From Candidatus Hadarchaeota archaeon (GTDB taxonomy: Archaea; CAYQAE01; CAYVLA01), in the NCBI GenBank assembly GCA_964621445.1, contig CAZUNO010000031.1, positions 1 to 29,142 on the forward strand: a DNA stretch of 29,142 nt, read 5' to 3'. The notes beneath the pieces are model-generated. The model made no database searches and was not told the origin of the DNA. It saw nothing but the letters and a program-made list of their open reading frames with translations. Of the stretch, positions 915 through 21,905 are shown in pieces; positions within the stretch are counted from its first letter, which is position 1; the number at the start of each line of letters is the position of its first letter. The position numbers and the translations under genes were made by a program.

Positions 915-1090
915 GAAACCCCCATACTGACACCATTATCGAGGGATTTCAGGCATAAGTAGTTTGCGGTTATGGATTCCGAAGATGGTAAGAGGAAATA
1001 GTTACAATCTTTCAATTTTTTTGGACCTGGAAGTGGTCGAATGAGTGAATCTACTTTCGGATAGGGGAAGCTAGGTATCAAAGCCCGGGT

Positions 1091-1098
1091 TTTATTAA
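1091..1098 (+). promoter_or_regulatory. Candidate archaeal TATA box for the 1134 gene
   Basis: TTTATTAA about 35 nt upstream of ATG 1134 in an AT-rich divergent intergenic region. Confidence 0.4.
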
Positions 1099-1133
1099 AG
1101 TAAGAGGATATTTGTTATCCGGAGTGTTTTTGA

Positions 1134-4097
1134 ATGGATTTCACTAGGGGTTTTGCCTTATTTTTATTATCGGCTCTGTCTTTGTTCATGGTTGTGAATG
1201 AGCCGGTTTGTGCTTCATGTGTTTCTGGGAGTAGTGGTCTTGGGTCCGAGTTTCCATATCTACAATGGAGTCTGGAGTGGAATCGGACCTATGGCGGCGG
1301 TGACCGGGAGAATTTCCGGGATGTGGTGACTGATGACGGTGGATATGTGCTAGCCGGGAGCATAGAGCTTTTTGGTGGTGGGTATGACGCTTGGTTGGTT
1401 AAGGTTGATAGCGAGGGTGTCCTGGAGTGGAGCCAAACCTATGGTGGTGAGGACCGGGAGACTTTGTGGGATGTGGTGGTGACTGGTGACGATGGGTACG
1501 TGCTAGCCGGGTACACAGAGTCTTATGGTGCGGGGGAGGCTGATTTTTGGTTGGTTAAGGTTGATAGCGAGGGGACAGTGGAGTGGAACCAAACCTATGG
1601 GGGGTTTGATGACGATGAGGCGTGGAGTATGGCAGCAACGAGTGATGGTGGTTACATTATAGCAGGAGATACAAGATCCTATGCTGCCGGGAAGACTGAT
1701 GTCTGGCTGGTGAAGGTTGATAGCGAGGGGGTGTTGGAGTGGACCCAGACCTATGGTGGTGAGGATTACGATGGGGGTAGGAGTGTGGTGGAGACTCATG
1801 GAGGTGGATACTTGCTAGCCGGGTATACAAAGTCTTATGGTGCAGGTGGACGTGACGCTTGGTTGGTTAAGGTTGATTGCGAGGGGGTGTTGGAGTGGAA
1901 TCGGACCTATGGTGGTAGCAAATATGATACTGCTCGGGATGTTTTGCAGACCGGTGATGGAGGATATGTCCTAGCTGGACAGACCGAGTCTTTTGGTGCC
2001 GGGTTATATGATTTTTGGTTGGTTAAGGTTGATTGCGAGGGGGTGTTGGAGTGGAATCGGACTTATGGCGGTGAGGACTACGAGTATTTGCAGGATGCAG
2101 CGACCGCCGATGACGGTGGGTATGTCTTGACCGGGCAAACGGAGTCGTATAGTGCCGGGAAGACTGATGCTTGGTTGGTTAAGGTTGATTGCGAGGGTGT
2201 CCTGGAGACTGACCGGGCCTATGGAGGTACTGATTGGGATTGGGGGAGTTCTGTTCTGGGAATTGGTAACGGTATCTATGTCCTGGCCGGGAGTACATCT
2301 TCTTATGGTGCCGAGCTGTCGGATGGTTGGTTATTGAAGGTTGGGCTAGAGCTATCTGGCGATTTGACTGTTTCGGATTTCTCTTCCGATGTTGTTGATG
2401 GAAGTGGGCCTTTAACGGTTAGTTTTGTTGACCGGTCCGAGTCTATTGATCGTGTGGTTTCGTGGCTGTGGGTTTTTGGGGATGGGTCAACCAGTAGGCT
2501 CCAGAACCCTAGCCATACCTATACCCAGATCGGTACCTATACTGTGAGCCTTACCGTGACAGAGGAAGATGGTGATAGTGATGTTGAGACTAAATCAAGA
2601 TACATAACGGTAACCGGTACGGACGAGATGGTTGATAGGCTGGATGTCGAGTGGACCTTCAACACCAGCGCCGTGTTCGACGACAAGGCCTTTGGCGCCG
2701 GTCACCAGGGCTGCCAAACGGTGTGGGATGTCGACGGTGATGGTGTGAACGAGGTTGTTTTCGGCACGCGTTGGGGTGATAGCGAGAGGCTTTGGTGTAT
2801 TGACCAGACCGGTAGCTTTGAGTGGGTCTACCCGGACATAGGTGATGAGGGACTGCCCAACGACCCGTGGGGTGTATCCCTCGTCGACGTTAACAGCGAT
2901 GGGACCTACGAGCTCTGTTTCTCTGGCAGGGGTGGTAGACTCCACGTGTTGAACGGTGACGGTAGCGAGCTCTGGCTATGGGATAACCCTACGGGTGCCC
3001 ATATGCTAGGGCCGCCCCAGGCACATGATGTGGATGGTGACGGGTTCCCGGAGTTCTTCATGAACGATGCGGGTGGTTTTATCCACCGCATCAGCCATGA
3101 AGGAGAACTGGTGTGGACTTCTTTCCAGGCTGGAGGTGCGAATGAAGGGCACCCCACCATCGCCGATATGGATAGGGATGGTAGTTTCGAGGTTTTGTGG
3201 GCGAGCCAGGACCACTATCTCTACTGTGTGGATGCGGCCACTGGCGAGGAGGTGTGGAGGTTTGATTCCGGAGCCAAGATGTATACCAACCCGGTGTTCG
3301 TGGCTGACATCAACAACGATGACCAGTTTGAAGGGTTGGTGTGGAATGATGACCCTGTTAACTCGGTGATAGCGGTCAGTGCTTCCGGGGCCGAGGTAGG
3401 CAGGTGGACCGAGCTACACGGGTCACCTATAAGGTTGACCCCTGCTATGGGAGATGTGGATGATGATGGTCAGCTTGAAATGGCATTGATGTCCGGAGCC
3501 GCTATATACGTGATAGACCTGGCCACCATGGGTATTGAGTGGGAGAGGGATGTCACCCAATGGACCCGGGGAGGCCTCATACCTGGGGGAGCGGTGACCA
3601 ACACCTGGTCTAACTACCCGCTTATCGCCGATATAGACGGGGACCTGGAGCTAGAGATACTCTGGCTATCGCCCTACCCCATCGTTACAGAAGCAGCAAC
3701 CGGAAGGTTAGAGTATTACTACTCTAATGAGCATGTTGATGTTGGCTGGAGGCAGGAGAACGGTGGCTGGTGGGGCGACGTCGACCAGGACGGCGTATCC
3801 GAATGGATCGTCGAACTGAACGGCAACAGCCACACCGAGACACAGCTATACTGCCTAACCGCAGGCGGGAGCTTCCCAGCCCACTCACCTTGGCCGGAGT
3901 ACGTGCACTCCGCCTACCCCGCAGCTTACCAGGCCCAACAGGACTGGATAACCCTAAAGGGCGCGGGGTCCAACTCCGTGTGGTTCCCCATGCCTGAAAT
4001 TCCAGCCATGCCATGGGTCCTTTTGGGCATTGCATTATACCTCATGATCCAAGCTGATAGGATATTGCTTTCATCAGGTCAATGGAGGATCCCTTGA
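1134..4097 (+). CDS. Secreted/surface multidomain protein: signal peptide, 7-repeat beta-propeller, PKD domain, FG-GAP/VCBS-like Ca-binding repeats, C-terminal membrane anchor
   Basis: Hydrophobic N-terminus. Seven W.RTYGG...DGGYVLAG.T.S.GAG..D.WLVKVD.EG.LE repeats. PKD signature PLTVSFVDRS...SWLWVFGDGSTSRLQNPSHTYTQIGTYTVSLTVT (about 2365-2625). Many DVDGDG/DMDRDG/DIDGD motifs. Ends MPEIPAMPWVLLGIALYLM. Confidence 0.9.
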   Translation: MDFTRGFALFLLSALSLFMVVNEPVCASCVSGSSGLGSEFPYLQWSLEWNRTYGGGDRENFRDVVTDDGGYVLAGSIELFGGGYDAWLVKVDSEGVLEWSQTYGGEDRETLWDVVVTGDDGYVLAGYTESYGAGEADFWLVKVDSEGTVEWNQTYGGFDDDEAWSMAATSDGGYIIAGDTRSYAAGKTDVWLVKVDSEGVLEWTQTYGGEDYDGGRSVVETHGGGYLLAGYTKSYGAGGRDAWLVKVDCEGVLEWNRTYGGSKYDTARDVLQTGDGGYVLAGQTESFGAGLYDFWLVKVDCEGVLEWNRTYGGEDYEYLQDAATADDGGYVLTGQTESYSAGKTDAWLVKVDCEGVLETDRAYGGTDWDWGSSVLGIGNGIYVLAGSTSSYGAELSDGWLLKVGLELSGDLTVSDFSSDVVDGSGPLTVSFVDRSESIDRVVSWLWVFGDGSTSRLQNPSHTYTQIGTYTVSLTVTEEDGDSDVETKSRYITVTGTDEMVDRLDVEWTFNTSAVFDDKAFGAGHQGCQTVWDVDGDGVNEVVFGTRWGDSERLWCIDQTGSFEWVYPDIGDEGLPNDPWGVSLVDVNSDGTYELCFSGRGGRLHVLNGDGSELWLWDNPTGAHMLGPPQAHDVDGDGFPEFFMNDAGGFIHRISHEGELVWTSFQAGGANEGHPTIADMDRDGSFEVLWASQDHYLYCVDAATGEEVWRFDSGAKMYTNPVFVADINNDDQFEGLVWNDDPVNSVIAVSASGAEVGRWTELHGSPIRLTPAMGDVDDDGQLEMALMSGAAIYVIDLATMGIEWERDVTQWTRGGLIPGGAVTNTWSNYPLIADIDGDLELEILWLSPYPIVTEAATGRLEYYYSNEHVDVGWRQENGGWWGDVDQDGVSEWIVELNGNSHTETQLYCLTAGGSFPAHSPWPEYVHSAYPAAYQAQQDWITLKGAGSNSVWFPMPEIPAMPWVLLGIALYLMIQADRILLSSGQWRIP
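1272..2345 (+). repeat. Intragenic tandem repeat, 7 units with a 156-bp period
   Basis: The TGG of the WLVKVD motif starts at 1392, 1548, 1704, 1860, 2016, 2172 and 2328, each exactly 156 bp apart. Long identical blocks occur, e.g. tggttggttaaggttgattgcgagggggtgttggagtggaatcggac at 1860 and 2016. Confidence 0.9.
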
Positions 4098-13462: not shown

Positions 13463-15478
13463 TTATGTTGTTGGTGGTCCCTTTACCCGGTCCGGTCTAC
13501 TTCCCAAAAGGCCAAAAAGCCGCTCCCTGAACCGACGTTCCCTGAGCATAAGGGCCTGGAGGAAGGTCCAGCTGTAGACCAAATGCCCCTCGTAGCCGCA
13601 GGGATTACCTTCCCAGTCATAGAACTCTGCCCCCTTCCCCATCTCGTCCACCACGCCGTTCTGGAAACCACCCCCGTTGGGGAACACGCCCCTGTGCTGG
13701 CGCTCCAACATGGCATCGAGAATCTTATCGGCCCTCCGGCGGTTCCCGACGATATAGTTGGCAACCAGGAAGAAGTAGGTGTTGCTAACGCAGCAACCGC
13801 CATTGAGATACTGCCCAAAGGTATCGGAGCCGTCCTCCAGCTCTTCGCCGAGCCTATGGTACTGGTCATCCCGGTGCACCGGCCTTAGGTTCAGGGGGAC
13901 CCCGAGGTCAAAACGATCGAACCCCGTTTTACGGAGTTCCTCCCAGTAGGCATCGAGCATCTGGCTTGCTCGATCCTTTGGGACCAGACCATATATGACA
14001 CCCATGCTGGTGGGAACATCGGAGTAGATATCATGCAGCATACCATCTCGGCTCCTCCACCATCCCAGCCAGCCGGTGTCCGGGTTGTAGAAAGTGGAAA
14101 TGAAAACGGAGTGGATACGATCGGCAAGGTAATCGTAGCGTGAACCCTTGCCGGTTCTTCCCAGTCTTCTCTCAAGATCGGCCATGCACCGGTAGGCCCG
14201 ATAGGCCAGGGCATTTACATATGCGTTCTTGTGTCCGCTGGAGTAGGTATCCCAGGCCGTATCGCCGAAGGAGCGTGTCCCCCTGTTCCCGCTCTGTGGA
14301 GATTCTATGAGCCCGTCTCCATCGGTGTCCCTGCCCTCCATCCAGTCGGCAATGGATTCCAGGCTCTCGATCTCCTTCGTCAGCCAATTCTCATCATCGC
14401 TGGCCTCCACGTAACACCAGGAAGCTGTAAGTACCGAGGGGTGGGAGTCCATCATGGGCCCCCTATCCCCAGTTCCAGAATCGATCTCGGTCTCCGTGTA
14501 CGAAATCCTCCCGTCCGGCTGCACGGCACGGTGCATCCAGAATTCAAGGGTCCTCCGGAGCAGTGGGCAGAGGGGGATGGATGGGGACAGTTTTGGGATC
14601 AGAAGGACATGGTCCCCGAGCCAGAACAAGGTGGAACTAACCGGGTTGCTGATAGCGTTGTTTGCCCAGGTTCCCCAACCCCTAGGCTGAGAATTGACCT
14701 GGATAAAGTTGAACCATCCTCTACGTGCTAGCGACCAGCGATCTTCATCCTCCAACCCCTCTGGAGTTTCAAGGACCAGGGGTGAGAATTCCAATTCATA
14801 GCCGGCACGGCCCGGAGAGGGGAGGTCCAGTGTGAGGTCCACCGTTTGACGCTGCCTGTCCCCGGCCACGGTCATGGTTACCGGACGCTGACAGGTAACC
14901 ATCATCTGTCCCATGTCCGGCGCGCTTAACAACGCGGGAAGTCCCATCTTGCCCTCGGTGACCGTATGAGGACCGATCACCGTGGTTGCCGTGAGCTTGG
15001 GGTTAAAGGGAATCGATATCTCCATTCTAGACAGATCCCTGACCCTACCACTCAATGCAAAGCGCATGGCCAGGTTACCATTGACCCGGGTTGTCCAGGA
15101 GAGATCGGTGATCGGTGAAATACTAAGAAGGTGGTGAATTTCATCATCCACCACCTCGGTGACCGTCCGAACCTTCTCCGCATCTAACCTCCCGGTGGGA
15201 AGTATGATATTCAATTTCAAGGGAGATCTCAACAGATTGTGCTGGCTGTGATCACCTCCCTCGGTGTCCCAACCCAGTTCGGTTAACATGGGCGAGGTCC
15301 GGTGGGCCTTAACATGTATGGAGGCGCTGGCGGATTCCTTCAGTGGAATGTTTTTGCGCGATATCAAGACCCCTTCCTCCTGAGAACCGGGTTTCAACCT
15401 GATTCCCGATAAATATTGGCCCGGTTTGGCCGGGTCTTCATTGAGATGTAGCTGACGGCATTTTGGGGGGCCTGGCAT
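13463..15478 (-). CDS. Putative (alpha/alpha)6-barrel glycoside hydrolase-like protein (six-hairpin glycosidase fold)
   Basis: C-terminal half has YVEASDDENWL, DTDGDGLIES, AWDT, NAYVNALAYRAYRCMADL, TFYNPDTGWL, YLNGG, EFYD, resembling GH78/GH116/debranching-enzyme catalytic domains. Start is uncertain; TTG at 15367 after GGAGGAAGGGG would remove the overlap with the upstream ORF. Confidence 0.7.
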   Translation of the reverse strand: MPGPPKCRQLHLNEDPAKPGQYLSGIRLKPGSQEEGVLISRKNIPLKESASASIHVKAHRTSPMLTELGWDTEGGDHSQHNLLRSPLKLNIILPTGRLDAEKVRTVTEVVDDEIHHLLSISPITDLSWTTRVNGNLAMRFALSGRVRDLSRMEISIPFNPKLTATTVIGPHTVTEGKMGLPALLSAPDMGQMMVTCQRPVTMTVAGDRQRQTVDLTLDLPSPGRAGYELEFSPLVLETPEGLEDEDRWSLARRGWFNFIQVNSQPRGWGTWANNAISNPVSSTLFWLGDHVLLIPKLSPSIPLCPLLRRTLEFWMHRAVQPDGRISYTETEIDSGTGDRGPMMDSHPSVLTASWCYVEASDDENWLTKEIESLESIADWMEGRDTDGDGLIESPQSGNRGTRSFGDTAWDTYSSGHKNAYVNALAYRAYRCMADLERRLGRTGKGSRYDYLADRIHSVFISTFYNPDTGWLGWWRSRDGMLHDIYSDVPTSMGVIYGLVPKDRASQMLDAYWEELRKTGFDRFDLGVPLNLRPVHRDDQYHRLGEELEDGSDTFGQYLNGGCCVSNTYFFLVANYIVGNRRRADKILDAMLERQHRGVFPNGGGFQNGVVDEMGKGAEFYDWEGNPCGYEGHLVYSWTFLQALMLRERRFRERLFGLLGSRPDRVKGPPTT

Positions 15479-15809
15479 CCCTCTTTAGATATCCATCCCA
15501 CATGCGTACGTCAGTGACCATTAATATCAGGGCTAGCGGGGCATAAACGATTGAGCCCGGGGTCATGGGGTTCCATATCAGCGGTGATAGAAGGCCACCC
15601 GTGACGGTCATGGATATGCAGGAGGAAATTGTCCTGGACATTTCAGGCGCGCCCCGCCAAAATCTAAGGGCTAAAACGAATAGAAATCCAGCAACAATAC
15701 CAATAGGAAGGATATAATTTATCCAATTCTGGAGAACTAGCGAGGTAATGAACAAGACCACCGGAATTAGTACCAGCTTTCCATCCCTTGAGTTTGCCAA
15801 GATTACCAA
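15438..15809 (-). CDS. Hypothetical membrane protein (about 4 TM helices)
   Basis: 123-aa ORF with four hydrophobic stretches; GGTGGG RBS-like motif and TTTAATAA upstream; TTG start. Confidence 0.6.
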   Translation of the reverse strand: MVILANSRDGKLVLIPVVLFITSLVLQNWINYILPIGIVAGFLFVLALRFWRGAPEMSRTISSCISMTVTGGLLSPLIWNPMTPGSIVYAPLALILMVTDVRMWDGYLKRDARPPKMPSATSQ

Positions 15810-15879
15810 TTGAATTGCTACCCACCTTTATTAAACTGTTACGAAGCCTCCGCCCATTCCCGATTTTAGTAGGATGCAG

Positions 15880-16170
15880 TCAGAGAATTTTTTCGCCACA
15901 AATCTCGCAGTAGTTCGCCTCCGGTCTCACGGGATGCCCGCAATTCGGACAATAACTCAAATTACTCTGAGTACCTCGCCGTTTCTTCTTCGGTCTCACC
16001 AACAGCCAAACGAGTAGGCCCACTATATTGCCCACCAGGACCACGATTAGCCAGAGAGCTCCATTCTCGCCTCGGGCATTTGCATCCCTGTAAACCCAAA
16101 TACATAGGAACACCGATAGGGCTATGGTTAGAATGAGAACCAATCCGACAAGTATTACCCCCAAAAGCAT
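15880..16170 (-). CDS. Small membrane protein with PLDc_N-like hairpin and C-terminal zinc ribbon
   Basis: WVYRDANARG...ALWLIVVLVGNIVGLLVWLLVRP followed by CPNCG...NYCEICG. Confidence 0.85.
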   Translation of the reverse strand: MLLGVILVGLVLILTIALSVFLCIWVYRDANARGENGALWLIVVLVGNIVGLLVWLLVRPKKKRRGTQSNLSYCPNCGHPVRPEANYCEICGEKIL

Positions 16171-16252
16171 GGCCCATTATTCCCCCGCAGGAAGGATCCT
16201 TGATGGATTAATAAATTTCCCTAGAGCCTTTGAGAAGGAGACCCTTAATGGC

Positions 16253-17452
16253 TTAGGCCTCAGTTAGCCTGGTTGCTTTTACTTGTTTGTAGAGTTTTCT
16301 TTTTATCATTAGTGTCCATAGTAGGAATCCGCATACCATGCCGGTGGCGGTTACTGCTAGCCATTCTATGATGAATATCCATAGCATGGCTCTGTTTTTG
16401 GCTTCCATCATGTTGTTGGATATGTCTTTGATTTCTTCGTTTGCTTGTGTTAGTGTTTGTGCGGCTTGTTGTAGTTCTCCTTTGAGGTAGGCTGTTTCTG
16501 CTTGTTGTTGTTTGGTTTTTATTTGTGCTAGTTGGTTTTCGAATGGTGTGGGGTTGGCTCCGAATTTGTCTATGAATTCTATTACTGAGGTGGCCATTCG
16601 GTTTTGTTCGTCGAGGCTGGAGAATAGGGCTCTGACTTCGTGGGTTAGTTCTAGGTCTTCTGGGTAGGGTAGTCCGGTTACGAAGCTTAGGTGGGAGAAG
16701 ATGTAGTCGGGTAGGTATCTCCAGGTTCTTTTTACTTCTTCGGGTATGGTGTCCCAGCCGTGGTTGTAGTGGAGTACGGTTCCTTCTCCGTATTCTCTGG
16801 AGACTAGTGCGGGTGTTTTCCTGCCTCTCCATATGGCCCAGGTGGTGGTTCCTTCTCGAGGGATGAGGTCGCCGTGGTGGCCCCAGTTGATGATTATCTT
16901 TTCTATTCCTGGGAAGTCGACTATGGGTCCTTCCTGTACTATTTTGTAGTATTGTCTGCCGTCTATGGCTTCTATGCAGTTGGGGAATAAGTCGGCGGGG
17001 AAGGCGTCGTATAGGCTGGTGTCTTGCCAGTATTCCATTCCGCATTGGGATATTCTTTGTGCGAATTCTACTAGGCAGAGTCCTATTCCGTCGTGTACTC
17101 CTTTTCTGAACCATTCTAGGTATTTGGGTGTTAGTACTTTGGGTGAGAAGTCGTGGAATATCATGGCGTCTGTGGTTGTTTGGAGGTCGCTGTATTTTCT
17201 GGGTAGGTATATTCTTACGAATCTGACTGCTTTTTCGTAGGGTAGTAGGATTAGGTTGCAGGGCACCACGCTAACCAGGTCGAACCTAGGATCAGTGGGA
17301 ATCATATCAATATACATATCCACATATCCGGAAACCTCCCCAACCCATATCAGCCTTTTTTTAGAGAGTTCCGACTCGTCTTGGGCCAGTACTAATGGTG
17401 AGGAGATAAGGATAATAATGAGTAATAGGCCTAGAGGGTTCTTGGCTCGCAT
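16253..17452 (-). CDS. Uncharacterised exported, C-terminally anchored protein (possible class-I GATase-like fold plus helical stalk and TM)
   Basis: Signal peptide (LLLIIILISSPLVLA-QD), alpha/beta core (RIYLPRKY, GIGL, PALVSREYGEGTV), coiled-coil region, C-terminal TM with basic tail. Clear paralog at 20685-21905. The fold assignment is an inference. Confidence 0.8.
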   Translation of the reverse strand: MRAKNPLGLLLIIILISSPLVLAQDESELSKKRLIWVGEVSGYVDMYIDMIPTDPRFDLVSVVPCNLILLPYEKAVRFVRIYLPRKYSDLQTTTDAMIFHDFSPKVLTPKYLEWFRKGVHDGIGLCLVEFAQRISQCGMEYWQDTSLYDAFPADLFPNCIEAIDGRQYYKIVQEGPIVDFPGIEKIIINWGHHGDLIPREGTTTWAIWRGRKTPALVSREYGEGTVLHYNHGWDTIPEEVKRTWRYLPDYIFSHLSFVTGLPYPEDLELTHEVRALFSSLDEQNRMATSVIEFIDKFGANPTPFENQLAQIKTKQQQAETAYLKGELQQAAQTLTQANEEIKDISNNMMEAKNRAMLWIFIIEWLAVTATGMVCGFLLWTLMIKRKLYKQVKATRLTEA

Positions 17453-17561
17453 ACATCCTTAATTTAACAACTCGCCAAATAAATTTTGCCCCATCGATTT
17501 GGATATCACTACCTCCAGGGTTCCATGCGATAGAAAGCAGGTGGGTTGGAGATCCGCCCCG

Positions 17562-18209
17562 TCAATCTCTCCTTTTTCGAAAGAGAAGCCAGATTCCGAG
17601 ACCAGTTCTGGGATCGCTTGGAGGTAACCCACCCTCACCAACAACCTGGAATCCGGTTAGCCCAGCTTCTCTGGCCCACCGGGCAAAGGTCTCCGGGTCC
17701 CTCATCTTGGTAAAGTTCTCCACGGCCCCAGGTCCTTTCTTTCTTACCGCTCTGCGCCTTCTTTGTGTGAATTGCCGTCGAGCCCAAAGAGGGTAGGTTT
17801 TACCCATACCTCCGCCAACCATTGCTTCGCCTCCGGGGCGCAATACCCGGCGTATCTCCTTCAAGCCAGCCCTCTGATCGTCCCAGAAAAAGATCGAGCC
17901 ACGGCTAATAACCAGGTCCAGGGAATTTTCCCGCATTGGCAGCTTCTCAGCTCTACACGATATGGCAGTCGACCTTTCACCAAGGCCGAGTTCAAGGGAT
18001 CTATTCAAAGCCTTGGCCAGGGCTTTCCGGTTTGGATCAGCCATGATTAACCTGCAATCGGAAAGCTGTGCGAGTTCGAGACCCACTTGCCCCTGACCGC
18101 ATCCCAAGTCCATACAAAGCCCGTGGGTACGGTTACACAGCTCCATTATATCTAGGGCCACGCAAGGGTAGTAATCTGGTAATTTTGTTTTGGAATCCGG
18201 GCTCTTCAT
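17562..18209 (-). CDS. Class I SAM-dependent methyltransferase
   Basis: Motif I MDLGCGQG, AEKLPMRENSLDLVISRGSIFFW, EIRRVLRPGG. Confidence 0.9.
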   Translation of the reverse strand: MKSPDSKTKLPDYYPCVALDIMELCNRTHGLCMDLGCGQGQVGLELAQLSDCRLIMADPNRKALAKALNRSLELGLGERSTAISCRAEKLPMRENSLDLVISRGSIFFWDDQRAGLKEIRRVLRPGGEAMVGGGMGKTYPLWARRQFTQRRRRAVRKKGPGAVENFTKMRDPETFARWAREAGLTGFQVVGEGGLPPSDPRTGLGIWLLFRKRRD

Positions 18210-20684: not shown

Positions 20685-21905
20685 TTACTCGCTCCGTAGC
20701 TTGGATGTACCGACTTCCCTATACAGCCTTCGCCTTACCATCAAGGTCCACAGGACGAATCCGGAGATCATGAAGGTGGCTATGAGCGAGAACCACTCGA
20801 TCATATATACCCAGGCCAAGGCCCGGTCCTTGGCACTCGAGGCAGCCTCTCGGATGGCCATCTGTTCCTCTCTTCCCCGGTCCAGATCCTCGAGAGCCCC
20901 ATCCATGTCGGCCTGGAGATAGTCCTCATAGGCATCATCCATCACCGTATCCAGATCCTCGATCCGGTTACGTAGATCTACCGTATTTCCACCAAAGTTC
21001 TCGACCCATGATACGAGTGAGTCAAGCATTCGGTTTCTCTCCCTGAAGGAGATGAAGGTGTTCATCACTATCTGAAAGAGATCAGGGTCCCTGGGCAGTT
21101 CCTTCTCGGAGATCCTGTAGACCAGATACATCATGGCCTGGGGGAAGTATTGCCAGTTCCGGGCCCATATTGGGACCCCTGCCGGGAACTTGCTGGCGAA
21201 TTTAAGGGCGGCTCCCTGGCCAAGATTCCAGTAGCTCATCAATGGATAGGCCTCTGGCCGGTCCACCCTGGCCCATACATGCCCCCTTTCTTGGCCTGCT
21301 GGAGATTGATGTTGTCCACCGGAGGTGCCTGCGACCAGGGCAGGGACTCCATAATGGGCTCATCCTCGTCGGTGACGGTGAGCCACAATACCCCTGAGGT
21401 TATGTACTTGTTCCCAAACTGGGCCTCGACCTGCTTGACGGGAAGAACTCCCGCCACGTTGGTGTCCTCCCAGGTTTCAAACCTCGCATCGGCGATATTT
21501 CCCAACCAAAACATGCCCATCCCTCCCTGGGGAACCGAGTCGGCCAGCCAGATAACCCACCGGGTTTCAAATACCGAGCGATCGGAGTCGCTCATCAATA
21601 TGATATCATAGTCGTCGATCAATTTCCGGTAAGTCCTGGGCATGTAGATTCTCATGTTTCTGACCGCGTCCTCCCGGCCTCCCAGATAATCGGCCCTTGA
21701 GGGTACGTAGGTCGGTTCTATTGCCGGATCTTCATCAATCACTGTGAAGATGTTGTATCCCACGTACTGGTCGGTTATATCACCGAAACATAAGATCCTT
21801 ATCCGGCCCCCGGGGCCCCATCCGTTGGGCCATAACCGGTGAGAAGGAGATGATGGCCATGGAGATGATAATCAACATAATGAGGTTAGCACCGGACGGC
21901 TTCAT
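20685..21905 (-). pseudogene. Paralog of the 16253-17452 exported membrane-anchored protein, split in three by two frameshifts
   Basis: ATG 21905 gives the signal peptide MKPSGANLIMLIIISMAIISFSPVMAQ. The frame shifts at the C5G4C4 run (21807-21819) into GRIRILCFGDITDQYVGYNIF...RIYMPRTY (ORF 21239..21763), then again at the C5 run (21282-21286) into HVWARVDRPEAYPLMSYW...AKDRALAWVYMIEW...GFVLWTLMVRRRLY (ORF 20685..21266). The pieces are collinear with the intact paralog. Confidence 0.8.

Follow-up and report, generated by a model that had tools for sequence, protein, structure and literature searches.

How can about 1 kb of coding DNA come to use almost only A and C at its third codon positions, while the codons on either side, in the same gene, remain ordinary? 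This question is raised by P0001, a gene on the minus strand of the window, i.e. the whole stretch of DNA analysed here (29,142 nt of a Candidatus Hadarchaeota archaeon; GenBank assembly GCA_964621445.1, contig CAZUNO010000031.1). The gene and the features around it are as follows.

16270..17263, + strand G+T-rich: skew tract, both edges within the coding sequence 16253-17452(-)
16253..17452, minus strand: P0001, intact gene of 399 amino acids (from its translation)
17264..17452, minus strand: ordinary-codon start of P0001, first 63 codons (signal peptide and first strand of the domain)
16260..17114, minus strand: shadow ORF, in the frame that reads P0001 third positions as first positions
16205..16217, no strand assigned: TATA-like A/T-rich box, read from the sequence, in the 82-nt spacer between the P0001 stop and gene 15883-16170(-)
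1016..2487, coding strand of 1134-4097(+): second tract, with the same + strand polarity as 16270-17263
1134..4097, plus strand: secreted repeat protein of 987 amino acids with YGG...WLVKVD repeats, PKD and an FG-GAP propeller
20685..21905, minus strand: P0001 paralogue (29% at the amino-acid level), of ordinary composition, used as internal control

Maximum-score segmentation placed the tract at 16270-17263 (994 nt, + strand keto 0.67). The preliminary description had reported a skew island bounded within one gene and taking over its third positions, which is what we found, and its G+T counts (51/60 in 16501-16560 and 22/60 in 17281-17340) were reproduced. In codons 64-394 of the gene, A or C occupies 309 of the 313 free third positions, i.e. 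those of codons other than Met and Trp; the four exceptions end with G or T (CAG, AAG, CCT, AGG). Codons 2-63 end with G or T at 30 of 59 free third positions, and the final five codons (AGG CTA ACT GAG GCC) are back to ordinary. The keto fraction of free third positions is 0.013 within the tract versus 0.51 in the 59 free codons before it, and the switch from ordinary to skewed takes place inside one codon, with a plateau, razor-sharp edges and no decay. All 71 two-fold NNY codons of the tract end with C, versus 44-66% across the genome, and 58 of the 60 NNR codons end with A, versus 28-37%; ATA, CTA and AGA predominate, and T is found at 1% of third positions. By codon position, the keto fraction of the tract is.46 (K1),.46 (K2) and.09 (K3, the G/T fraction of third codon positions). 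For the whole gene, K3 is 0.1475, the lowest value of 2971 called ORFs (mean 0.505, SD 0.052). Consecutive period-3 keto positions form runs of 61, 41, 33, 30, 24 and 21 in the tract, with about 0.003 such runs of at least 30 expected in the whole genome. In the protein, the use of K, Q, I and T is raised over the tract and that of V, R, M, D and G is lowered. This stretch of about 1 kb, in an intact archaeal surface-protein gene, bears the mark, real and sharply delimited, of a local process that acts on a single strand.

The product of P0001 comprises a signal peptide, a GATase1-like ectodomain, a long coiled coil and a C-terminal membrane helix, and tblastn detected more than 150 paralogous places in the genome. 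From the AlphaFold model (pLDDT 82), the ectodomain is predicted to be GATase1-like (class I glutamine amidotransferase-like), with a flavodoxin-like alpha/beta fold: the best Foldseek matches are 2gk3 (E 6e-9, TM by target.67), 3soz (.66) and 3rht (.60), all GATase1-like. A Pfam search of P0001 gave no significant family, PF07090 included, and the only sequence-level match was 3rht (E 0.28). The tract edge at 17263 falls inside strand E57-64 of this model and so does not coincide with a domain border. The translation of the shadow ORF is a basic low-complexity string that, as previously described, lacks F, Y, C and W and is free of internal stops; its G-initial residues number 21 on recount. 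We read this ORF as a by-product of the T shortage at third positions and not as a gene; it would have no stops because it has no T-initial codons.

The paralogue at 20685-21905 is split over two frames (tblastn pieces 21673-21404 and 21317-20697), with a keto fraction of.50-.55 by frame. Together with the genes next to P0001, it is ordinary (K3 0.47-0.58), as the preliminary description had stated, but the rest of the window is not free of skew. The second tract begins 118 nt upstream of the start codon of the repeat-protein gene and occupies its first 457 codons, with third positions of A.09, C.15, G.35 and T.41.

An abrupt change of composition in a MAG contig might point to a chimeric join or a sequencing artefact at 16270 or 17263. 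The contigs that bridge these edges, all with 0 differences, are listed below.

X1: 16269-17688 and 16093-16296
X2: 17092-17640
X3: 17043-17323 and 16231-16399

Edge 17263 is therefore spanned by contigs of three samples and edge 16270 by those of two. In addition, a piece covering 16920-17339 from X4, a diverged strain from a second study, also crosses 17263, and this strain bears the tract. The reading frame and the homology with orthologues are continuous across both edges, and an artefact would not spare replacement sites. The chimeric assembly that the preliminary description had considered is thus refuted in practice by bridging contigs from two studies, and we give an artefact virtually no credence.

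The X4 strain also shows how the tract evolves. Compared with the studied genome (G000), it differs at 57 of 565 and 30 of 307 positions in the flanks and at 14 of 400 and 12 of 420 positions on the tract pieces, i.e. a similarity of about 97% on the tract and about 90% on the flanks, the tract being three times more conserved. Among the 15 in-tract differences listed, 8 are exchanges between G and T on the + strand, which preserve keto. By these differences, the constraint on the composition of the tract is still acting in two populations.

Then, we searched the whole genome for comparable segments, ignoring N in the later scans, as twelve 100-nt N blocks had given false tracts in the first keto scan. 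The K3 scan flagged 36 gene segments, in unrelated genes; the tracts are 0.2-1.5 kb long and several of them sit in IS copies and on small contigs. Third positions are approximately A.45, C.40, G.13 and T.04 in AC-type segments and A.05, C.16, G.40 and T.38 in GT-type segments, the complement of the former. Both coding polarities are present genome-wide, recognised protein domains included. One GT-type ORF (C71:202-591) was discarded as the antisense shadow of an IS66 copy. The two tracts of the window share the same + strand polarity in oppositely oriented genes, and a non-coding stretch inside another tract (C34:9340-9433) is 85% keto. The skew thus belongs to the DNA strand and not to the codons, in line with the local strand-specific process that had been proposed in place of codon usage or GC drift.

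These observations bear directly on translational codon selection, in which A/C-ending codons would be the best decoded and the gene would be optimised after a slow 5' ramp. NNC and NNA codons do pair by Watson-Crick rules with GNN and UNN anticodons, and no bias is seen in the first 63 codons, which cover the signal peptide. However, the second tract, 14 kb away, uses the opposite codon set, the predominant ATA, CTA and AGA are usually rare codons, non-coding DNA is skewed too, the switch occurs inside one codon, and ribosomal-protein and RNA-polymerase genes have a K3 of.49-.62. Such selection is scarcely credible here, and plain codon usage is contradicted by the second tract, the non-coding stretch and the unbiased housekeeping genes. 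Because the ribosomal-protein cluster (K3.48-.62) and the RNA-polymerase region (K3.50-.55) show no skew beyond background, plain expression level is not the driver either, high expression of these genes being assumed.

We then compared the tracts with the background of the genome. Third-position skew is bimodal at the contig level (about ±0.03), i.e. a replichore-like background, and its sign switches from - to + at about 136-140 kb of contig C3, beside an AT-rich spacer (GC.30) and an AAA+/wHTH gene. No skew switch was found at the Cdc6 gene (C13:38000-39247), which was rejected as an origin for this reason. The r-protein and RpoB operons are located on the keto-rich strand. The tract at 16270-17263 is discrete and about ten times stronger than this background, and is therefore an island, as first described, and not a smooth replichore effect. 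Of the 28 segments that could be tested, 23 have the polarity of the background around them (p 0.0009); with the IS copies left out, the figure is 20 of 24. Part of this concordance could be due to the detection threshold, since the background adds to weak tracts. Segments also start on one side: with a tolerance of 12 codons, 16 of the 36 have a gene boundary at their 5' end, as read along the keto-rich strand, and 2 at their 3' end, the remaining 18 being internal to genes. The 5'-side starts correspond to 11 of 19 AC-type segments at the stop and 5 of 17 GT-type segments at the start; by comparison, only 1 of the 19 AC-type segments lies near a start codon. No genome-wide 5'-to-3' gradient of third-position skew was observed along genes, and no contig of the assembly is skewed throughout.

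Comparison with orthologues, one of the checks initially suggested, places the tract in a single lineage. The third-position keto fraction of four P0001 orthologues (L033, with 73% amino-acid identity, L002, L003 and L034; range 64-73%) is about 0.5 along their length, and since all four use ordinary codons, the tract is lineage-specific. Homologues of the genes bearing two other tracts also use ordinary codons: those of the repeat protein (1134-4097) in G002 and G003 have a K3 of.41-.47, and those of a histidine kinase, being paralogues only about 40% identical, give weak support. Among five genomes of the phylum, exact 30-codon period-3 runs outside low complexity were found only in G000, and the threshold was exceeded by 27 of 14,447 windows in G000 but by not one of the 1850 windows covering 400 kb of G001. 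Four-fold sites are saturated between orthologues (R/Y class identity of about 0.5 except for the closest pair), and no synteny was detected within 1.5-3 kb between P0001 and the orthologue loci, a result that counts neither for nor against acquisition. Orthologues at 64-73% identity and edges inside a coding sequence do not correspond to a horizontally acquired island.

The replacement sites of the tract are also shifted in the same direction as its third positions. Compared with L002, differences at codon positions 1 and 2 inside the tract comprise 60 keto>amino and 17 amino>keto, and 22 and 18, respectively, before the tract. When these changes were polarised, the totals were 39 in G000 and 37 in its sister lineage L033, with keto>amino changes doubled (21 vs. 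10) and amino>keto changes reduced to a third (5 vs. 15). Judged from these counts, the pattern looks like a fixation bias as much as extra mutation. G>C transversions are up (7 vs. 2) as much as G>A transitions (10 vs. 5). With five outgroups, the amino-acid changes unique to G000 and L033 number 23/27, 21/22, 22/24, 17/16 and 20/16; the amino-acid evolution of P0001 is thus not accelerated relative to the sister lineage. One-shot hypermutation was rejected, as the ORF is intact, keto is depleted at third positions only (K1 and K2 versus K3) and the substitution rate equals that of the sister lineage.

Several searches around the tract were negative or served to discard candidates. Blastn of the tract against the genome detected no second copy, only short 3'-end paralogue matches, including a 74-nt relic at C14. 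No motif common to the tract edges, as had been envisaged, was seen by eye in 20 tracts. Lost deamination or mismatch repair was discarded as a cause, as G000 encodes UDG (two copies), EndoV and NucS, enzymes also found in its family relatives G001-G003. A diversity-generating retroelement target was also discarded: no template repeat was found in the genome, and the only reverse transcriptase (RT) is intron-type and on another contig.

The reading that we favour, tentatively and with a confidence slightly below even, is that a strand exposed as single-stranded DNA unusually often has long been subject to substitutions biased from amino to keto bases, while selection has maintained the protein. 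The + strand would be driven from A and C to G and T over about 1 kb, at every site where the protein tolerates it, and purifying selection would preserve the GATase1-like surface protein during this base replacement. This strand would have to be single-stranded more often or for longer than its surroundings, either while serving as lagging-strand template or when displaced, as the non-template strand, by an antisense transcript starting in the spacer beyond the P0001 stop. By its sequence, the TATA-like box at 16205-16217 could start such a + strand transcript about 30 nt before the tract. On the exposed strand, hydrolysis would deaminate C to U and A to hypoxanthine, giving C>T and A>G once copied. 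Passages of PMC10030826 state that single-stranded DNA deaminates preferentially, that leading strands and non-template strands are enriched in G+T, and that GC skew promotes R-loops. A G-richer displaced strand would favour RNA:DNA hybrids, and exposure could become self-reinforcing, hence a plateau with sharp edges. Some results count against this reading. The local background S on the contig studied (C31) is +0.010 at tract 16270-17263 and -0.002 at tract 1016-2487, too weak to give a fork direction. The purity of 98.7% implies, by simple arithmetic, a bias of about 65 to 1. The unaccelerated amino-acid evolution of P0001 is also unfavourable, as are the pattern of its polarised changes, the razor-sharp edges, the lack of a gradient along genes, the unskewed housekeeping genes and the presence of UDG, EndoV and NucS, and pure deamination does not predict the raised G>C. 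T-runs are archaeal termination signals, and the five T5+ runs on the + strand of the tract would be an obstacle to antisense transcription over 1 kb.

That the composition itself is favoured, by selection or by some other fixation bias, is possible but rather doubtful. Such a bias could act for an unstructured mRNA or single strand (a strand made of two non-complementary bases cannot pair with itself), for a G-poor coding strand that avoids R-loops, or for antisense T-runs that stop antisense transcription. The substitution pattern suits it, with a replacement total equal to that of the sister lineage, opposite changes in the two directions and G>C also raised, as do the threefold conservation of the tract between populations and the mostly keto-preserving differences listed. 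The sense RNA of the tract folds weakly (-0.09 to -0.21 kcal/mol per nt, versus -0.311 ± 0.036 for 30 control CDS pieces, the weakest at -0.236), and T4+ runs are absent on the sense strand, with 14 on the antisense (+) strand. The palindrome depletion that had been suggested holds for 4-mers (37 vs. 56.7 ± 8.3 in 100 controls) but not for 6-mers (11 vs. 13.8 ± 3.7). However, both coding polarities exist and G+U-rich RNA folds normally (-0.22 to -0.32 kcal/mol per nt), so that no single mRNA benefit fits both, and non-coding DNA within tracts is likewise skewed. In addition, polarity tracks the replication background, which is unexpected of an RNA-level benefit, no polar motif of the KOPS/Chi type is prominent (best 8-mer skew 0.73-0.78, about 100 copies), and such selection gives no reason for targeting codons 64-394 of one among more than 150 paralogues. 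A recombinational import from an unsampled close relative or extrachromosomal element, with a mitochondrion-like strand asymmetry over its whole genome, seems improbable. Homologous replacement would account for sharp edges inside a coding sequence, a flat plateau and a polarity matching the replication direction of the homologous locus. Recombination-like lengths, tracts in unrelated genes, in IS copies and on small contigs, and a similarity to X4 that is higher in the tract than in the flanks, as after a recent spread, all go in the same direction. On the other hand, scans with P0001 recovered no donor and no skewed relative (three relatives in metagenomes, all with ordinary codons, and one in genomes), the assembly holds no contig skewed throughout, and amino-acid identity to L033 does not jump at the edge, being about 75% in the tract and, judged by eye, similar in the codons that precede it. 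A donor differing at most third positions would presumably recombine poorly, the one-sided starts at gene boundaries (16 vs. 2) are unexpected, and we know of no prokaryote with a third-position skew near 0.9.

Gene conversion by error-prone cDNA is very unlikely. An RT that starts copying at the 3' end of the mRNA would introduce G:T-wobble errors (G>A and U>C in the sense), and recombination of the resulting cDNA with the gene would leave A/C-type tracts anchored at the 3' ends of genes. The excess of A/C-type segments at stops over starts (11/19 vs. 1/19) is what this predicts, and RVT_1 was found in G000 only, among five genomes searched. But G/T-type tracts in real domains would require antisense RNAs, and the second tract takes in non-coding DNA upstream of a start codon. 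Moreover, the coding strand lies on the amino-rich strand of the background in 14 of the 15 A/C-type segments that could be tested (12 of 13 without IS), the opposite of what is expected from antisense cDNA annealing to the lagging-strand template. The RT itself is an ordinary, truncated group II intron-type RT/maturase on a tiny 1.9-kb contig (C87), possibly mis-binned (contamination 4.2%), and the coincidence of RT and tracts in one genome is a sample of one. Among the candidates of the preliminary description, we would rank single-strand mutagenesis first, then selection against self-pairing, then import from a skewed donor.

Replication is taken to leave prokaryotic chromosomes, as a by-product, with a weak strand asymmetry over their whole length, whereas here the asymmetry is local and saturated inside a working gene, strong enough to alter the amino-acid make-up of a protein, and retained in two populations. 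If the cause is mutational, the tract marks one strand in an unusual state and offers a natural read-out for uncultured organisms; if the composition is selected, some requirement on the make-up of DNA or RNA takes precedence over the choice of codons. In practice, such tracts give rise to spurious ORFs of great length, both in the other frames and on the opposite strand (16260-17114, C71), distort codon-usage and horizontal-transfer predictors and bias substitution models. As a broader speculation that we consider unlikely, kilobase-sized strand-skew islands might represent a chromosomal state of their own, inherited and shared by many uncultured archaea and bacteria. One strand of a segment would be held exposed (by a persistent co-directional R-loop, another programmed single-strand structure or a targeted strand-specific editor), and the G-rich strand would be self-reinforcing until all free sites are converted, giving sharp edges, saturation and proteins rewritten towards K/Q/T/I or G/V/W/D.

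A literature search for local tracts in microbial chromosomes, with subscription journals outside its coverage, returned only genome-wide skew, R-loop reviews and unrelated work. Replication strand asymmetry (G+T-rich leading strand, with its effect on codon usage in Borrelia burgdorferi) enriches the same pair of bases, acts on third positions and drags amino acids along, and the background of G000 and the polarity agreement of its segments recall it. However, the known effect is modest and smooth over a replichore, as opposed to a 994-bp block of 98.7% purity with ordinary neighbours. Transcription-associated mutagenesis and R-loop-prone GC-skewed regions (immunoglobulin switch, hypermutation), in which the non-template strand gains G+T, most markedly towards transcript 5' ends, resemble the tracts in being of kilobase scale and affecting one strand, and 16 of the 36 segments run down the G+T-rich strand from a gene boundary (vs. 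2 on the 3' side); passages of PMC10030826 add that G-rich displaced strands favour hybrids. But here the only evident gene has the G+T-rich strand as its template, and the antisense transcript is conjectural; moreover, prokaryotic effects amount to a few percent, and in G000 housekeeping genes are unskewed and no gradient follows gene position. Kataegis by APOBEC and fungal repeat-induced point mutation are likewise local and sharp, with transitions of one sense on one strand. These processes are one-off, hit all codon positions and wreck genes, whereas here the protein is intact, positions 1 and 2 keep a keto fraction of about 0.46, and A>G is involved besides C>T. Vertebrate mitochondrial DNA is the nearest match in magnitude and kind. 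Its light strand is A+C-rich and its heavy strand G+T-rich, which is ascribed to time spent single-stranded, and third positions on one strand hold almost exclusively A or C, whatever the direction of the gene, T being less depleted than in the tract (1%). In mitochondria, this asymmetry extends over the entire length of a small genome that replicates in a mode of its own, whereas here it forms an island in a 3.2-Mb archaeal chromosome.

A recount bore out the + strand G+T counts of the preliminary description (51/60 in 16501-16560, 22/60 in 17281-17340) and the residue make-up of the shadow ORF, said to lack F, Y, C and W. Maximum-score segmentation places the G+T-rich tract at 16270-17263, within the gene of a surface protein:

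16253-17452, - strand: P0001, 399 aa by translation

From codon 64 to codon 394 of this gene, a per-codon count found A or C at the end of 309 of the 313 codons other than Met and Trp; in the tract, two-fold pyrimidine-ending codons end in C (71/71) and two-fold purine-ending codons in A (58/60). Codons 2-63 end in G or T in 30 cases out of 59, and the last five codons have ordinary third positions. Consecutive period-3 keto (G/T) runs reach 61, 41, 33 and 30 in the tract, about 0.003 runs of at least 30 being expected genome-wide, and among 2971 ORFs none is as extreme as P0001 in third-position keto. The structure model puts the start of the tract within a beta-strand of the P0001 domain, at no domain border.

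The window is an entire contig (C31) of an assembly (G000) of 3.21 Mb in 89 contigs, 96% complete with 4% contamination, and its DNA is present in microbial-mat metagenomes from one study and hypersaline-lake metagenomes from another. An assembly join at the tract edges had been envisaged; contigs from three samples span these edges with 0 differences, a check based on assembled contigs, not reads, in which X1 may be the source sample:

16269-17688 and 16093-16296: Logan contigs of sample X1, edge-crossing, 0 differences
17092-17640: Logan contig of sample X2, edge-crossing, 0 differences
17043-17323 and 16231-16399: Logan contigs of sample X3, edge-crossing, 0 differences

In addition, a piece of a diverged strain from the second study (X4, 16920-17339) spans the edge at 17263. 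The tract is genuine and not an assembly artefact.

According to a structure model and structure search, P0001 comprises a signal peptide, a GATase1-like fold domain, a long coiled coil and a C-terminal membrane helix. The domain matches 2gk3, 3soz and 3rht, all GATase1-like (TM 0.60-0.67 by target); sequence methods gave no significant family for P0001. Its family occupies more than 150 paralogous places in the 3.2-Mb genome, is of similar size in three family relatives (G001-G003), and was not found with the P0001 query in 37 more distant archaeal genomes. The paralogue at 20685-21905(-), whose composition is ordinary as claimed, is broken across two frames (tblastn pieces 21673-21404 and 21317-20697), which probably reflects either a pseudogene with a frameshift or an error in sequencing. 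Directly downstream of P0001, gene 15883-16170(-) encodes 95 aa with two membrane helices and a zinc-ribbon-like C-terminal CxxC...CxxC end. A relic of the last 27 codons of P0001 (C14:2793-2873(-), 83 nt, about 90% identical) is appended behind another gene; it is also A/C-ending at third positions and was therefore copied after the tract formed.

The best orthologues of P0001 are at 73% (L033, from a metagenome), 68% (L002), 66% (L034) and 64% (L003) at the amino-acid level. Comparing orthologues, as had been suggested, placed the third positions of all four near A.1, C.4, G.4 and T.1, with a keto fraction of 0.35-0.70 along them, and on this comparison the tract is lineage-specific. Synonymous sites are saturated in all pairs, and the substitutions that built the tract are therefore not readable from orthologues. 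At codon positions 1 and 2, differences from L002 comprise 60 keto>amino and 17 amino>keto inside the tract (22 and 18 before it). Amino-acid usage in the tract is up for K, Q, I and T and down for V, R, M, D and G.

Of 14,447 non-overlapping 60-codon windows across the genome, 27 have a third-position keto fraction beyond 0.22/0.78; in 400 kb of G001, 0 of 1850 windows passed the threshold. Among five genomes of the phylum, exact 30-codon runs outside low-complexity sequence occur in G000 only. The extreme windows correspond to 36 segments of unrelated genes, not all of them independent, as some tracts are common to IS copies and one GT-type ORF is an antisense shadow. Twelve 100-nt N blocks (e.g. 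C30:9529-9628) look like A+C-rich tracts when keto is scanned naively, and one sits within a real tract on C30. Tract-bearing genes encode a histidine kinase, an S24/S26 peptidase, an oxidoreductase, IS66 and DDE transposases, clostripain and large repeat proteins; two cases are the following:

1016-2487, + strand keto-rich as in the first tract: second tract, starting 118 nt upstream of gene 1134-4097(+)
C34:9434-11071, - strand: DDE transposase gene (L028), carrying two segments, one G/T-type (5' end) and one A/C-type (3' end)

The second tract covers the first 457 codons of 1134-4097(+), including its YGG...WLVKVD repeats, with G/T third positions there and a GC skew of up to +0.5; homologous repeat proteins of relatives have ordinary codons. 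A/C-type and G/T-type third-position compositions (coding strand) are mutual complements. Moreover, the 3' tract of the transposase gene extends 94 nt into non-coding DNA (85% keto), and tract C34:14945-16400 covers the overlapping 3' ends of the convergent genes 13562-15349(+) and 15346-17943(-). Since one of these genes shows the G/T type and the other the A/C type, this tract ignores gene direction. The skew belongs to the DNA strand, not to the codons. Separately, the 1110-aa Ig-like repeat protein encoded at locus L017 (C3:188007-191336(-)) has about three tandem units; in each of them, some 40 consecutive codons end purely in A or C and lie beside ordinary codons.

Of the 19 A/C-type segments, 11 come within 12 codons of the stop and 1 within 12 codons of the start; of the 17 G/T-type segments, 5 reach the start and 1 reaches the stop. 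Along the keto-rich strand, a gene boundary is found at the beginning of 16 of the 36 segments and at the end of 2. The tract at 16270-17263 starts 17 nt inside the 3' end of P0001, about 55 nt past an A/T-rich TATA-like box in the spacer. Inspection of 20 tracts by eye showed no common edge motif, and a skew gradient along genes, sought genome-wide, was absent.

With gene direction balanced, third-position keto skew per contig is bimodal in G000 (about ±0.03) and, more weakly, in G001. On contig C3 its sign changes from - to + at ~136-140 kb. This switch (L030, about 136-143 kb), a candidate replication origin, adjoins an AT-rich spacer (GC 0.30) as well as an AAA+/winged-helix gene with a small tract of its own; no skew switch was found at the Cdc6 gene (C13:38000-39247). 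The keto-rich strand carries the ribosomal-protein cluster and RpoB and is therefore taken, with moderate confidence, as leading, as in bacteria. Segment polarity agrees with the sign of the local background (±15 kb, tracts left out) in 23 of 28 testable segments (P = 0.0009; 20 of 24 without IS copies), an agreement that the detection threshold may inflate among weak tracts. On C31, the background at the two tracts (+0.010 and -0.002) is too weak for a polarity call.

X4 differs from G000 at 57/565 and 30/307 flank positions, and at 14/400 and 12/420 tract positions. In the displayed subset, which excludes 67 others and on which the difference types are based, 17 of 22 flank differences are transitions, and 8 of 15 tract differences are G<->T on the + strand; keto is kept in 5 of 8 third-position ones, codon positions being derived by our own arithmetic. 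The skewed state is, from these sequences, being maintained.

Selection for the composition itself could produce such a state. Unique amino-acid changes (G000/L033: 23/27, 21/22, 22/24, 17/16, 20/16) indicate that the protein evolves no faster than in the sister lineage, and polarised position 1/2 changes number 39 vs. 37. Their spectrum is altered, with keto>amino at 21 vs. 10, amino>keto at 5 vs. 15, and G>C (7 vs. 2) up alongside G>A (10 vs. 5). Unaccelerated protein change with a changed spectrum seems to sit better with fixation bias than with a simple hypermutator; the same totals could come from saturating mutation bias on limited tolerant sites. The suggested palindrome depletion holds for 4-mers and fails for 6-mers. 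Palindrome loss at 4-mers, the weak folding of the sense RNA and the T-run asymmetry (0 on the sense strand, 14 on the other) follow from composition. We regard selection for composition as rather unlikely. Import from a skewed donor is improbable. Conversion by cDNA is very improbable, as the strand rule (polarity vs. background) speaks against it. The only reverse transcriptase among the five genomes is a truncated group II intron-type reverse transcriptase/maturase (C87:1-1032, on a 1.9-kb contig), and a search for RVT_1 in the four others found none.

Our reading is that the tract shows, in its purest local form, a process turning amino into keto bases on one strand, which tends to share the polarity of replication and to set in at gene boundaries. 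Its likeliest basis, we tentatively propose, is prolonged single-strandedness: a strand kept single-stranded for long periods would undergo deamination, and RNA:DNA hybrids might reinforce that state. G000 has genes for the repair of deaminated bases and of mismatches. Our literature search turned up chromosome-wide skew only; background on strand skew comes from the review PMC10030826. The finding is real and striking.
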